The notes beneath the pieces were generated by a model, which had not been told where the DNA came from, did not search any database, and was given only the letters and a program-made list of their open reading frames with translations. Below, one piece after another: positions 36,671-41,292 of a stretch of DNA of 64,000 bases. Positions within the stretch are counted from its first letter, which is position 1. The number at the start of each line of letters is the position of its first letter. Both the position numbers and the translations under genes were made by a program. The stretch is from Phycisphaerae bacterium. GTDB taxonomy: Bacteria > Planctomycetota > Phycisphaerae > UBA1845. The stretch lies in the NCBI GenBank assembly GCA_963666835.2, contig CAXXGO010000006.1, positions 2,144,001 to 2,208,000 on the forward strand. The letters run 5' to 3'.

Positions 36671-37942
36671 ATGAATGTGCGTCGTACGACGGCCAGCGCT
36701 GCGATGCGCCGGGGCGGGCAAACGGGTTTTTGTCCTTTGAACAGGGGGGGGGCACGCACTGCCGCCCTTGTGAAAACGGCGCTGGTCGCCGGGCTTGGCG
36801 TGGTTCTCGCCATGCCTAGCACCGCGTGGGCACAGGCGGCTCCGATCTACCTGGGAAGCGATCGGAGCATCGACGGGTGCTACCGGGATGAGATGGGAAA
36901 CCTGCACTGCGGGCCGGCAGTTGCGGACCCCGGTCCCCCGGGGCAATACGATCGGATCGAGCACCTCGCCGATTACTTCGCGTGGGCCGACGTGGATTTC
37001 GCCTTAACCAGCGGTAGTCTCGAAGTTGGCGAGGCGACGATTCATGCGGACCTGACCGGCACGGCGCCGGTGCTGGTGTCGGAGGGCGGGTTGCTCGTGG
37101 CGACGGGCACGGTTACCGCGGTGTTCGAGAGTTGGGGCTCGTCGGTCGACGCGGTCGTGCAGCTTACCGAGGGCTCGGTAACCCGCACGCTGGAGCTTAC
37201 GGTCTCGGTCACTCCGAGCGGGCTGGCAGTCTACGGCACTTTGACGACCACGGCCGGTGACCCTCCGGTGTCCGGGGGCTGGTTGTATTCGCCTGCGGAG
37301 GGCGTCTGGGAGGATCCTACGTCGGAGTCGGGCTTTCACGACGCCGTCGAGGCGATGCTCCACTGTCAGTTGCTGGACCGTCAGAATGACCCTCGGGGTC
37401 TGAGCCTGGGCAACACATTCATTCTGATCGGCAATATCATCGGGCAGGTGGTCACGTCCATCTTGGACATGATGATTCCCTATACACCTCCGCATGCATA
37501 CCAGTGTGACGGTCCCTTGGTCAACGACGGCCCGGGTCAAAGCTGCGAGGGCAGCACACCCCCGTGCATCGATAACCTGTCCAGCGTATACGAGAAGATC
37601 GACAAGATCCCGGACGTCACCCTGGCGTTCAAGAAGTGCATGAAAGGCCGCCTCGGCTGCGGCGGCTCACACTTCCGCCGGACACGAATCGATTGCGCGC
37701 CGGAGAGTGACTGCGGGCCATGCGAACCATTCGGTTTGGCCGGCGGATGCAGTTTGGGTGGATCGCTTATGTGGTATTGCGAGACTAGTGCAGACGAATG
37801 TGATTGTGCCAATGTTGTGTTTCACGAGACGGCACATTCGTGCGGCGCGTTGGATCAGACTGGTGAGACCTCTAGGATTGGCGAGTGGTTTGCGGATCAG
37901 CTAGGCCAGACGAACCCGGGGCTTTGCTGGCCGGTTGATTGA
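36671..37942 (+). CDS. Secreted protein with Cys-rich C-terminal HExxH metallopeptidase-like domain (putative toxin T1)
   Basis: GGGAG RBS; signal ending TAWA|Q; beta-rich N-domain; hydrophobic helix after DPR; 14 Cys in the last ~146 aa; VFHETAHSCG. Confidence 0.8.
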   Translation: MNVRRTTASAAMRRGGQTGFCPLNRGGARTAALVKTALVAGLGVVLAMPSTAWAQAAPIYLGSDRSIDGCYRDEMGNLHCGPAVADPGPPGQYDRIEHLADYFAWADVDFALTSGSLEVGEATIHADLTGTAPVLVSEGGLLVATGTVTAVFESWGSSVDAVVQLTEGSVTRTLELTVSVTPSGLAVYGTLTTTAGDPPVSGGWLYSPAEGVWEDPTSESGFHDAVEAMLHCQLLDRQNDPRGLSLGNTFILIGNIIGQVVTSILDMMIPYTPPHAYQCDGPLVNDGPGQSCEGSTPPCIDNLSSVYEKIDKIPDVTLAFKKCMKGRLGCGGSHFRRTRIDCAPESDCGPCEPFGLAGGCSLGGSLMWYCETSADECDCANVVFHETAHSCGALDQTGETSRIGEWFADQLGQTNPGLCWPVD

Positions 37943-38017: not shown

Positions 38018-38518
38018 ATGAAAATAGGACGTATGAAGGTCACGGCCATACTACTGGCCTCGGTAACTGTAGGAGTAGCATTCGGTCTCGGATGCTCTCC
38101 TTGCCCGCTTACGTTTGCCGGCATGCTCGTGCGCGGTAGCGTCGAGACGGATAGTCAAGACACACTCGGGGACTTTGTCGTTGACGCATACACGTGGACG
38201 GGCGACACACGGACCGCGTCGGGGTCAACCAGTCTGGGCTATAGTGACAACAACTTTACCTGGCAGGACGGGACCTTTCAGATCTCTCTTGCATCACCTG
38301 ACCGCGTAGCGGTCTGTGACGACCCGTTCTCGGCACAGGTCGAAGTCCCTGAGTACCCGGTGCCGGACGAGGTACACCTCGTGATCACACACGACGGTTG
38401 CGAGTACACCTTCGAGATACAGGTGACCGCAGACATGCTGACCGACTACGACTATCCGGAGTACGACATTCTCCAACTGACCGAGCCGCTGGTAATCGGC
38501 GCGTGCCCGGAAGAATGA
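38018..38518 (+). CDS. Lipoprotein, cassette A (putative immunity/inhibitor)
   Basis: Lipobox FGLG|C; paralogous to B and C (NFTWxDGTFQ, PEYPVPD, VTADMLTDYD, IGACPEE). Confidence 0.85.
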   Translation: MKIGRMKVTAILLASVTVGVAFGLGCSPCPLTFAGMLVRGSVETDSQDTLGDFVVDAYTWTGDTRTASGSTSLGYSDNNFTWQDGTFQISLASPDRVAVCDDPFSAQVEVPEYPVPDEVHLVITHDGCEYTFEIQVTADMLTDYDYPEYDILQLTEPLVIGACPEE

Positions 38519-38536
38519 CGAGGATATGTCCCGGCC

Positions 38537-38678
38537 GGGTGCCCCATCCATGCCGGCGTTTTGCGCGCTGGAATCGCCGCATCGCCCGCCGGCATGGGTG
38601 GGGGACGGATTGGAGTCCTGAAGTTGCGTCGGTCGACAAACGAGAGCTTCCACAAAGGCGCGTGTTGCGTTAGAGGTC
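38537..38678 (+). repeat. Family W palindrome plus a 73-bp segment repeated after cassette C
   Basis: GGGTGCCCCATCCATGCCGGC...GCCGGCATGGGTGGG; 38606-38678 equals 40623-40695 with 2 mismatches. Confidence 0.9.
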
Positions 38679-38679
38679 T

Positions 38680-38832
38680 CAATGCGATTGCGCGAATACA
38701 GTCTTTCATGAAATGGCCCATTCGTGCGGCGCGTTGGATCAGACCGGAGATTCGCGTCGGATTGCTGACTTCTTTGAAGACGAGTTTGAGACGGCAAACC
38801 CCATTGCTTGCTATCAAACGAAGCGACCCTGA
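38680..38832 (+). pseudogene. Orphan, start-less C-terminal fragment of a second peptidase allele (T2 tip)
   Basis: Translates QCDCANTVFHEMAHSCGALDQTGDSRRIADFFEDEFETANPIACYQTKRP*; ungapped, 27/48 identical to the T1 C-terminus; in-frame TAG at 38671. Confidence 0.92.
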
Positions 38833-38900
38833 GGGAAGAACTTGGGAGTATAACAATGTGTGCTAGAAGATCCCATAACACGCCGATCTGGAAACAAGCG

Positions 38901-39404
38901 ATGAAGAACACGATTCGAATAGAAGTAGCGGTCATGCTCACAGTCGCAGGTGTCATCGGTCTTGCGTCCGGCGTGGCGCGTTCTCCTTGCCCGCTTACTT
39001 CGGCAACCATGGTGGTTCGAGGGAAGGTCGAGGCAGACATCGCGACTACGTTGGGAACTTTCGACGTCGACGCGTACACGTGGACGGTTGGCGAACAGAC
39101 GGGGGCAGGGTCAACTCGCCATTCGTTGAGTGAGCAGAACTTCACCTGGGAGGACGGCACCTTCCAAGCCTTTCTCGGGGCCAGCGGGTCCGTCAGTGTA
39201 TGTTCCGACCCGTTTTCCGAGGAGGTTGAGGTCCCGGAGTATCCGGTTCCAGATGAAGTGCGCTTGGTCGTTATTCACGGCGGTTGCGAGCATACGTTCG
39301 AGATAACGGTAACGGCCGACATGCTCACGGACTACGACTTTCCGGAGTACGACATTGTCCAATTGACCAAGCCGTTGGTAATCGGAGCGTGCCCGGAGGA
39401 GTGA
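38901..39404 (+). CDS. Exported protein, cassette B (lipobox Cys replaced by Arg)
   Basis: Paralogue of A and C; SGVA-R-SPCP where A has GLG-C-SPCP. Confidence 0.85.
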   Translation: MKNTIRIEVAVMLTVAGVIGLASGVARSPCPLTSATMVVRGKVEADIATTLGTFDVDAYTWTVGEQTGAGSTRHSLSEQNFTWEDGTFQAFLGASGSVSVCSDPFSEEVEVPEYPVPDEVRLVVIHGGCEHTFEITVTADMLTDYDFPEYDIVQLTKPLVIGACPEE

Positions 39405-39423
39405 CAAGAATATGTCCCGGCCT

Positions 39424-39960
39424 GGTGCCCCATCCATGCCGGCGTTTGGCATGCGGGGTGCGGGGTGCCCCATTCATGCCGGCGTCTGCTGGGCTGGAAT
39501 AGCCGCATCGCCCCGCGGCCGGCATGGGTGGGGGGCGGATTGCGTAGGGCACGGTCGAGGTACGAGACCTGCCGAGATGTCGCGTGTCGCGCGAATCCCT
39601 AACCGCGTCACGCGGCCACCCGGTGAACGGTCCCGAAGGGACTGTGGGCACGTAGCCACGGGTGGAGCGAAGCGGAACCCGTGGGGTGATTCGGCCCCCA
39701 TACGCTCCCGTCCCGAAGGGCCGGAGGAGGATTAACGGCATGACGCAAAGAACAACGGCAGGTCTCGTGCCTCGATGCTGCCCTACAGAATGCTCTGGGC
39801 GGGTTGCGCAAGCCGAACGTCGTTGTGCAACCCACTTCGGGGTTGGTGCGGAAGGGGGCTTTGTGCCCCAGGGTGGCACTTCACGGCTGCGCCGCTTTGT
39901 TTACCCTGGGCTTCGTTGTTTAACGCCTTCGGCGTACGTTCAAAAGGCACGAGACCTGCC
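39424..39960. repeat. Nested repeat mosaic: W (two heads), X(+ 39544), Y (39606-39786, ending in X- 39757), Z(- 39821-39937), partial X (39945)
   Basis: Direct comparison with copies at 7473, 8721, 15985, 16185, 38537, 40549-40986. Confidence 0.88.
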
Positions 39961-40012
39961 GCGAAAGCGCGCGTCACGCAGAGGATTAAGCATGCATTCT
40001 GAGGATCTGGCA

Positions 40013-40513
40013 ATGAGGACAACGAATCGAATAGAAGCCGCGGTAATGGTCGTGGTTATAGGTGCCATCGGGCTGGTGTCCGGTTCAGCTTGTTGCTCGT
40101 GCCCGCTCATCTCGGCGCAGATGCTGGTTCGCGGCAGAGTCGAGGCGGATGCCACGATCACATTGGGGAGTTTCGAGGTCAGCGCCTACACCCGGACTGC
40201 CGGCGAATGGACCGGAGCAGGGGCGACGGGCCATTCGTTGAGCGAGCAGAACTTCACCTGGCAGGACGGGACCTTTCAGGTCCACCTTGGGGGCGGCGAG
40301 CTCGGCAGATGTCCCAATCCATTCTCTTCGGAGGTTGTGGTTCCCGAATACCCCGTGCCGGATAAAGTCCACTTAGTGGTTACGCACGACGGCTGCGAGC
40401 AGACCTTCGAGATACCTGTAACGGCCGACATGCTCACGGACTACGACTTTCCGGAGTACGACATTGTCCAATTGACCAAGCCGTTGGTAATCGGAGCGTG
40501 CCCGGAGGAGTGA
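40013..40513 (+). CDS. Lipoprotein, cassette C
   Basis: Lipobox SGSA|C; paralogue of A and B; last 100 bp identical to B. Confidence 0.85.
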   Translation: MRTTNRIEAAVMVVVIGAIGLVSGSACCSCPLISAQMLVRGRVEADATITLGSFEVSAYTRTAGEWTGAGATGHSLSEQNFTWQDGTFQVHLGGGELGRCPNPFSSEVVVPEYPVPDKVHLVVTHDGCEQTFEIPVTADMLTDYDFPEYDIVQLTKPLVIGACPEE

Positions 40514-40548
40514 CAAGGATATGGCCCAACCGCGTGCCCTATTCCGGC

Positions 40549-40986
40549 CGGACGCCCCATCCATGACGGCGGCTGCTGGGCTGAAACAGCCGTATCGCCC
40601 GGCCGCCGGCATGGGTGGGGGGCGGATTGGAGTCCTGAAGTTGCGTCGGTCGACAAACGACAGCTTCCACAAGGGCGCGTGTTGCGTTAGAGGTCGCGGC
40701 AGGTCTCGTACCTCGACCGTGCCCTACAGGGTGCCGGGTGCCATGGTCCACGCTTGCGTGGCCATGAAGGTCGTTTGGGTCGGGCGAGCGCAAGGGTGTC
40801 AACGTCGTCACGTGGCCACCCGGTGAACGGTCCCGAAGGAACTGTGGGCACGTAGCCACGGGTGGAGCGAAGCGGGACCCGTGGGGTGATTCGGGCCCCA
40901 CCTACTCCCGTCCCGGAGGGCCGGCGGAGGATTAACCGCATGACGAAAAGACCAACGACAGGTCTCGTGCCTCGACCATGCCCTAC
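40549..40986. repeat. Repeat mosaic: W, 73-bp segment, X(- 40698), Y (40806-40986, ending in X- 40957)
   Basis: Y is a 181-bp near copy of 39606-39786 containing GTAG-CCACGGG-N-CCCGTGG flanked by GTCCCG hairpins. Confidence 0.88.
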
Positions 40987-41085
40987 GGGGCGGGGTTGAA
41001 TTGACGTTCTGCGCGCATAGACCAGCAAGGCCCCGGCCGCAGCCGCAAGCCCGATGGAGGGATATCCTGTATCTCCGACGGTCTG

Positions 41086-41292
41086 CTACGAGTCGGTCTC
41101 GGTGGCGTCTTCGGTGGCGGCTGCTACCTGGGTCGCCAGGGACGCCAGGAAGTCGTTTAGGAAGTAATCTTTGGTACCGGCGACCAGAGCTTCTTTCAGC
41201 CGGGTCTCGCACCCCCCGAACATGGTACCGCCGCCCAGGGTCACCGCGAGCATAGTTGCCACTTTCGTGCGTATTCTTGCAGTGCGCTTCAT
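41086..41292 (-). CDS. Small lipoprotein (68 aa)
   Basis: Basic N-terminus, TMFGG|C lipobox, short amphipathic helix, acidic tail. Confidence 0.7.
   Translation of the reverse strand: MKRTARIRTKVATMLAVTLGGGTMFGGCETRLKEALVAGTKDYFLNDFLASLATQVAAATEDATETDS

Follow-up and report, generated by a model that had tools for sequence, protein, structure and literature searches.

What is a reading frame with no beginning doing between two complete genes? The question is raised by a short stretch behind the paired genes T1 and A in a Phycisphaerae bacterium, where a frame that resembles the end of T1 stands directly ahead of B, a further gene of the A family. We analysed it in the window, that is the whole 64,000-nt stretch of DNA in which it lies (part of G000:C6); all positions are window coordinates unless a contig or locus is named. 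We favour, at a probability of roughly 0.6, the reading that positions 38680-38832 represent a 5'-truncated, untranslatable remnant of a second tip, behind which its partner gene B still stands, and that the locus is likely a polymorphic toxin/immunity system. The features on which the argument rests are collected in Table 1. The locus is bordered by FeoAB upstream and AspRS downstream, and the neighbourhood holds no dedicated secretion genes. Rfam gave no match between 36000 and 42000, and promoter-like and terminator-like sites were no more frequent than in shuffled sequence. Among the sequencing runs listed for this DNA, none was of RNA.

Table 1. Features of the T1 locus, in window coordinates.
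Feature	Position	Strand	Remarks
T1, full-length gene	36671-37942	+	ORF, 423 aa
Variable tip of T1	37687-37942	+	From about residue 339; nucleotide identity to locus-2 T falls from 100% to 67%
26-nt block in T1	37835-37860	+	Encodes HSCGALDQT; identical to 38719-38744
A, partner gene of T1	38018-38518	+	Small, lipoprotein-like, A family; alternative start 37997
Post-A repeat module	38519-38679	+	17-bp GC-rich hairpin plus half-unit; its 3' edge coincides with the fragment's 5' edge
T2 fragment, 5'-truncated orphan tip	38680-38832	+	50 codons plus stop; no start codon; in-frame TAG at 38671-38673
26-nt block, copy in the T2 fragment	38719-38744	+	Identical to 37835-37860
B, orphan partner gene	38901-39404	+	A family, 167 aa; Arg at the lipobox Cys position
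Spacer of dispersed repeats	39405-40012	+	Hundreds of copies genome-wide; no tip remnant detected by profile
C, third A-family gene	40013-40513	+	No tip upstream; alternative start 39992

Firstly, we established what the fragment is. The original prediction had read a peptide from this frame and aligned it to T1 without gaps, with 27 of 48 residues identical. Our translation matches that peptide exactly, and BLASTP returned the same number of identities in a gapless alignment of somewhat shorter span (27 of 45, E 7e-20). The 50 residues of the fragment are homologous to the last 48 of T1 (residues 376-423 by alignment), hence about 35 residues of the variable region and the entire conserved part are missing; a profile of the C-terminal part of T recognises the fragment over positions 76-121 of its 124 (iE 2.5e-15). 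The HExxH motif, which is HEMAH in the fragment, and the four cysteines that had been described as kept do align with those of T1, and all the synonymous codon differences that had been listed (TGT/TGC, GCC/GCG, CAC/CAT, GAG/GAA) are present. The distances to the genes behind also agree with those first given: 68 nt lie between the end of the fragment's stop at 38832 and the ATG of B at 38901, and 75 nt between the end of the T1 stop at 37942 and the second ATG of A at 38018. We confirmed that the ORF list lacks the fragment, which is explained by the missing start codon; with the TAG in frame ahead of it, the frame opens only from 38674. Its nearest relative is the tip of the T gene at locus 3 of this genome (over 42 codons, 83% identical in amino acids and 79% in nucleotides), and P0037, from another assembly, carries a tip of the same subtype, about 65% identical as counted by eye. 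The proposed dN/dS comparison gave a pN of 0.09, a pS of 0.67 and a dN/dS of 0.06 for the fragment against the locus-3 tip; over the tip pairs pN ranged from 0.09 to 0.23, pS from 0.61 to 0.87, where synonymous sites are near saturation, and dN/dS from 0.06 to 0.22. Since the divergence is mostly synonymous, the fragment evolved as coding sequence for most of its history, and its truncation is recent relative to its divergence from the locus-3 tip.

Secondly, we assessed the edges of the fragment. The original prediction had named a misassembly at 38678 as a refutation, but Logan contigs cross 38678/38679 with 0 differences. These are X1 (38614-39292), X3 (38614-38807) and X5 (38587-38752), which come from three samples and two studies, one of the three samples possibly being the assembly's own source. 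As contigs from three samples bridge the 5' edge without a difference, a misassembly there is unlikely. The sequence on the other side of this edge belongs to a module, a 17-bp GC-rich hairpin with a half-palindrome unit, that follows every A-family gene in the genome. At loci 2 and 3 the module runs directly into the start of the C gene, and at the equivalent point in the window locus it runs into the T2 fragment. Its units occur at tens to hundreds of genomic sites, and contig depth over them, summed over public runs, reaches up to thousands. Because the module adjoins the edge of the fragment, the truncation probably arose through a deletion or insertion mediated by repeats. A reading by eye of the hairpin modules as integron attC sites was dropped because of this number of genomic places. 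Contig joints from 38609/38610 to 40696/40963 were set aside as repeat artefacts, their sides being 21-26 letters inside dispersed repeats. The spacers around C (39540-39990, 40640-40800 and 40950-41100) are made of several dispersed repeat families with hundreds of genomic copies, which may be REP-like elements.

Thirdly, we compared T1 with its paralogs. T1 begins with a signal-peptide-like segment with an AxA site (by eye), continues with a beta-rich middle and ends in a Cys-rich part that contains HETAHSCGALD. The genome holds three T genes, the other two being 91% and 80% identical to T1, and seven genes of the A family. Loci 2 and 3 are arranged T-A-C, while the window locus reads T1-A-fragment-B-C. 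The claim that the fragment is the remnant of a second tip allele paired with B is supported by this arrangement, since the window locus alone among the three has the extra fragment and B, and by the relatives, which have intact cassettes of a tip and an A gene; the check for a full-length T2-B allele found none in any fetched locus or protein, and a metagenome scan with B as the query returned no relative. T1 and the T gene of locus 2 are identical over 933 nt (36754-37686) and only 67% identical over the 270 nt that follow. The change comes after ...GCGGSHFRRTRI, at about residue 339, and beyond the tip the two loci are 52-78% alike through the A gene. A variable tip, which is one of the features of polymorphic toxins, is thus present in the comparison of T1 with the locus-2 gene, and a variable tail is found family-wide. 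All T genes of this genome agree fully or almost fully as far as about residue 339 and diverge sharply behind it. The divergent last ~85 residues include the HExxHxCGxx[D/H] helix, and the break falls inside the Cys-rich domain, not at a domain border. The T gene of locus 3, which lies outside the window, carries a palindromic dispersed repeat of ~90 nt in frame within its N part (at G000:C6:832543-832692, minus strand). This repeat adds about 30 residues (YVGHGRGTRPATV...) and has 935 short blastn hits genome-wide; the insert is also found in P0003, from another assembly, and its unit recurs in the window at 39544-39577 and 40694-40727.

We then asked whether the tip is a zinc peptidase. Its motif is HExxHxCGxx[D/H]. 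HExxH is intact in 43 of the 46 tips in which the motif region is covered, the exceptions being a frameshifted orphan with HKASH, the L034 main gene with QEMAH and one tip that could not be parsed; D or H stands at the third-ligand position in 44 of the 45 tips that were parsed. The domain is about 150 residues long and the C-terminal part of T has 12 or more conserved cysteines. At threshold, Pfam and NCBIfam assigned T1 to no family, nor did Pfam at E values up to 1. Below threshold, the C-terminal parts matched zinc peptidases only: Astacin in 3 of 14 (E 0.04), Reprolysin_3 in 2 of 14 (E 0.014) and M50B in 3 of 14. The sole match in a profile search of the PDB was a snake venom metalloproteinase (E 0.19), and the Atlas gave Aspzincin_M35 at 0.90. 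Structure models were of low confidence (pLDDT 57, the mean of the AF2 model of T1, and 47). A Foldseek search of the PDB returned nothing at E <= 0.001. The best Z from VIA-align wide was 5.6, and a number of zinc peptidases scored near Z 4, within the noise range that is given for the tool. Given the lack of a family match and the low confidence of the models, the peptidase call rests on the motif and its conservation, from which the tip is probably a small zinc peptidase. HEXXHXXGXXD is the motif of the Asp-zincins (Trame et al. 2014, PMC3890501), and HEXXHXXGXXH is the metzincin form. The T tip resembles the Asp-zincins, the mini-zincins and the metzincins in having HExxHxxGxx with D or H as third ligand. 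It differs from the Asp-zincins and the metzincins in its cysteines and in the lack of a family-level match or a confident fold, and from the metzincins in that no conserved Met follows the motif in the T alignment, the only invariant column behind the motif being a Phe.

The partner genes vary along with the tips. A has a lipobox-like GLGC (by eye), its relatives have lipobox-like motifs, and Pfam gave it no family at threshold. The A paralogs are 50-72% identical where the tips differ. B is 72% identical to C and 61% to the A gene of locus 3, and C shares 91% identity with the gene that ends locus 2. Purifying selection acts on B as it does on its paralogs, with a dN/dS of 0.10-0.28 when the signal segment is left aside. 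At 38961-38975, however, B has an Arg at the position that the lipobox-like Cys takes in A, C and the four other paralogs, and its Shine-Dalgarno-like stretch is weaker; the anchoring or processing of B may differ, or its decay may be setting in. Sub-threshold leads, namely CarboxypepD_reg in 2 of 12 A-family members by Pfam (E 0.013) and an Atlas look-up of A with scores under 0.9 and PEGA in 14% of the members of one cluster, hint weakly at a small beta-sandwich. A prediction of the complex between the C-terminal part of T1 and A scored 0.00 and was left out as evidence either way. The last 96 nt of B and of C, with 4 nt past the stop, are identical (39309-39408 and 40418-40517), although the proteins are 72% identical overall, which resembles a tract of recent gene conversion between two adjoining members of the A family.

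We found the family in a single family-level clade of the Phycisphaerae. With T1 as the query, 6 of 36 other genomes of this clade matched and 0 of 24 from the other families of the order, and the tip profile gave 0 matches at E <= 1e-5 in 400 other genomes sampled across the phylum. Named records with the T family are Phycisphaerae or Planctomycetota MAGs. A database of 5.8 billion protein clusters contributed 8 near-length relatives of T1, 10 A-family proteins and 46 longer proteins with the tip domain, the latter unnamed or 'hypothetical' except P0051, whose source label is 'putative flippase GtrA'. The relatives from this database have no Pfam domain apart from a Cys-rich repeat (PF00526) on four T proteins, and no known carrier domains were found on the 46 longer proteins. 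With profiles of the N part, the tip and the A family we charted 14 genome loci and 28 metagenome loci, and removed duplicates by identical layout (L040, L041, L048, L042 and L052), which left 37 distinct loci. A script flagged orphan tips in 14 of these, of which we discounted L033 (broken main gene), L035 (contig start) and L057 (gap in the main gene). An orphan tip downstream of an A gene and devoid of a full N part is therefore present in 11 of the 37, the window locus included. Standalone tip cassettes near a full gene, another polymorphic-toxin feature, are thus present. Intact orphans, for example in L028, L045 and L054, start at or slightly upstream of a conserved AFKKCMKGRxGCGGS stretch; L054 also has a short truncated fragment (profile positions 81-117) ahead of an A gene, a remnant of the same kind as the T2 fragment. 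An A-family gene follows the tip in nearly every mapped locus, and in 15 of the 37 an A gene comes directly after another A gene. Tip similarity correlates with the similarity of the adjacent A genes (Mantel r 0.60, 0 of 5000 permutations), a correlation confounded by shared ancestry.

A sharp switch, a variable partner, a surplus of partners and start-less tip cassettes mark polymorphic toxin systems and the orphan modules of CDI and Rhs loci, as outlined in PMC3482391, PMC3150448, PMC2935791 and PMC3967940. It is on account of these four features that we read the locus as one of the polymorphic toxin/immunity kind. Under such a scheme, T would be exported by the Sec pathway and the disulfide-rich C-terminal part would act as a small zinc peptidase that harms the envelopes of neighbouring cells, and each A-family lipoprotein would bind and block one type of tip outside the cytoplasm. 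New cassettes of a tip and an A gene would come in through recombination within the conserved stretch that lies immediately ahead of the variable tip, and the entering cassette would push the older pair downstream (C-terminal displacement). The displaced tip would decay, cut in this locus at the edge of a dispersed repeat module, and its A gene would be retained as protection against neighbours that still make that tip. Several observations count against parts of this scheme. The tips are homologous variants that all align as one domain, so the diverse unrelated C-terminal domains on one carrier that characterise polymorphic toxins are absent. B is not especially similar to the A gene of locus 3, the partner of the fragment's nearest tip, and is closer to C. 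B also lacks the lipobox Cys of its paralogs, and T and A have no Pfam or NCBIfam family at threshold. The position of the break inside the Cys-rich domain, the QEMAH and HKASH variants, the low confidence of the models with fold searches that gave no clear match, and the lack of dedicated secretion genes near the locus weigh on the same side. The variable partner immediately downstream is present, its immunity role being putative. We advance with more reserve, and at somewhat under even odds, a fuller picture: an undescribed Sec-exported polymorphic zinc-peptidase weapon of one Phycisphaerae clade, in which the exchangeable unit would cut through the catalytic domain, strains would swap the active-site helix, the C-terminal helix and the matching lipoprotein antidote as one cassette, and dispersed hairpin repeats would help to shuffle and truncate the cassettes.

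The main rival to the toxin/immunity reading is a protease secreted for feeding or for remodelling of the surface and not as a weapon, against which lipoprotein inhibitors protect the cell that makes it; the paralogs and the fragment would then be debris of tandem duplication and repeat-mediated deletion, with no part in conflict. Pairs of the serralysin type have a gene for an HExxH zinc protease beside that of a small exported beta-rich periplasmic inhibitor, and the T gene likewise adjoins that of a small, putatively exported and perhaps beta-rich A which would block T outside the cytoplasm. Such pairs are not known to be polymorphic or to come with arrays of orphan tips. That both proteins look extracytoplasmic, from signal-like and lipobox-like segments seen by eye and from conserved cysteines, that the catalytic motif is conserved, that secretion or delivery genes are lacking near the locus and that the fragment's edge coincides with a dispersed repeat module all agree with this account. 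Yet plain duplication leaves unexplained a fall from 100% to 67% identity at one intragenic point, and also the recurrence in many relatives of tip-only arrays that start in the same conserved stretch, as well as the surplus of A over T genes (7 to 3 in the genome). We consider this rival unlikely, at about one chance in a handful.

Returning to the toxin/immunity reading, the locus can be set beside three known systems. In the account of CDI loci by Poole et al. 2011 (PMC3150448), orphan modules of the cdiA-CT/cdiI kind are start-less C-terminal fragments downstream of the main gene, each with a small partner behind it; they keep varying amounts of the conserved upstream sequence, some are truncated or cut by mobile DNA, and the partners look expressible. 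The window locus has in the same way a start-less tip fragment followed by the small gene B. In contrast to CDI, whose toxin is a giant two-partner-secreted filament, T is a 400-aa protein with a signal-peptide-like leader, its alignment contains no VENN motif, its tips are variants of one Cys-rich HExxH domain and the partners are lipoprotein-like where those of CDI are cytoplasmic, all known here from sequence. Rhs genes are described as having a conserved core, a sharp switch to a divergent tip with its partner and displaced tips downstream (Jackson et al. 2009, PMC2935791), and T has likewise a conserved core, a tip that switches sharply and a presumably older tip downstream. T1 differs from Rhs proteins in having neither YD/Rhs repeats nor any other Pfam domain, and the homology left between T1 and the fragment amounts to only 26 exact nt within about 67% identity. 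The survey by Zhang et al. 2012 (PMC3482391) includes the zincin-like toxin domains Tox-MPTase1-5 and HopH1-like, and gives the general secretory pathway as the commonest export route; in its table, no immunity family is entered for the metallopeptidase toxin domains and their carriers are mostly RHS-repeat proteins. Like these toxins, T is a polymorphic protein whose C-terminal end is a small HExxH domain. It differs in that no Tox-MPTase model held by Pfam was reported for T1 (E up to 1) or for 14 C-terminal parts (E up to 10), and in that it has a conserved family of lipoprotein-like partners. Interbacterial weapons are little studied in the Planctomycetota, and if the proposed function is true, a toxin family and an immunity family that have no current annotation would be added to the polymorphic toxin systems of this phylum, and the zincin-type toxins would gain a cognate immunity partner, for which the table of PMC3482391 has no entry. 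The fragment itself would be ordinary for such a locus, a decaying displaced tip, while the gene family around it is undescribed. As the family is small and rich in variation (main tips, intact orphans and truncated ones), it would then suit a study of how a protease tip and the protein that blocks it evolve their specificity for each other.

The original prediction had gone further and proposed that a 26-bp block shared by T1 and the fragment could let recombination swap the end of the tip and the cassette behind it onto T1. The block is exact over 26 nt and extends on neither side. Its two copies lie 884 nt apart amid about 67% identity, and in the other five tip pairs of the genome shared runs are at most 15 nt long. 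In shuffles of the T1/T2 match vector, 5 of 20000 reached 26, a frequency that holds for this pair out of the six examined. Either a short conversion tract or chance could account for the run. Crossing over at the block would delete 884 nt and yield a T1/T2 chimera followed by B. The strongest form of the proposal is that the fragment is a maintained silent cassette whose recombination at the block would load the T2 end and B onto T1, in the manner of orphan Rhs toxins; a second arm might be provided by the 3' parts of the A and B genes, which are conserved. In favour of it are an exact run that only T1 and the fragment were seen to share and that agrees with a short conversion tract, the 80% likeness of A and B over 260 nt in their 3' parts, and a frame that is still open with mostly synonymous divergence, and there is a precedent in the recombination of a main rhs gene with an orphan fragment, by which an orphan tip can be loaded (Koskiniemi et al. 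2014, PMC3967940). However, the fragment lacks the AFKKCMKGRxGCGGS arm that the intact orphans of relatives retain, together with about 35 residues of the variable region, so that in any chimera the active-site region would be a mixture of two tip types. No such chimera is among the contig joints listed, a listing that leaves out 36 joints, and contigs drop rare variants. The frequency from the shuffles applies to a single pair, and the analogous fragment in L054 suggests that decay is common. We regard a maintained cassette as improbable, at perhaps half the chance given to the protease/inhibitor account. X5 also includes a 243-nt contig that matches T1 exactly over 37706-37856, leaves it inside the 26-nt block and continues with 92 letters unlike the window, which could be a strain variant or a recombinant.

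Least probable of all is a non-catalytic pair in which the T tips and the A lipoproteins would act as polymorphic adhesins or as labels of self and non-self, HExxH being a structural metal site: paired variation, the QEMAH of the main T of L034 and the lack of a confident peptidase fold in the models are compatible with it, but the catalytic Glu is retained with HExxH in 43 of 46 tips, and metal binding alone needs no Glu.

Several loci of relatives depart from the usual picture. In one relative (L033 = G004:C27, 5748-7004, and L026, 3578-4519), a TAA stop interrupts the main T gene shortly ahead of HExxH, after which the frame shifts, and the two downstream A-family domains are fused in one reading frame of 314 aa. 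L034 (G007:C71, 1825-2193) has a full-length T in which the first zinc-binding His is replaced, followed by two A-family genes. In L038 (5633-6241) and in L056 (7260-7610), a second full T with its N part lies shortly downstream of the first T-A unit, hence whole T-A units also occur in tandem.
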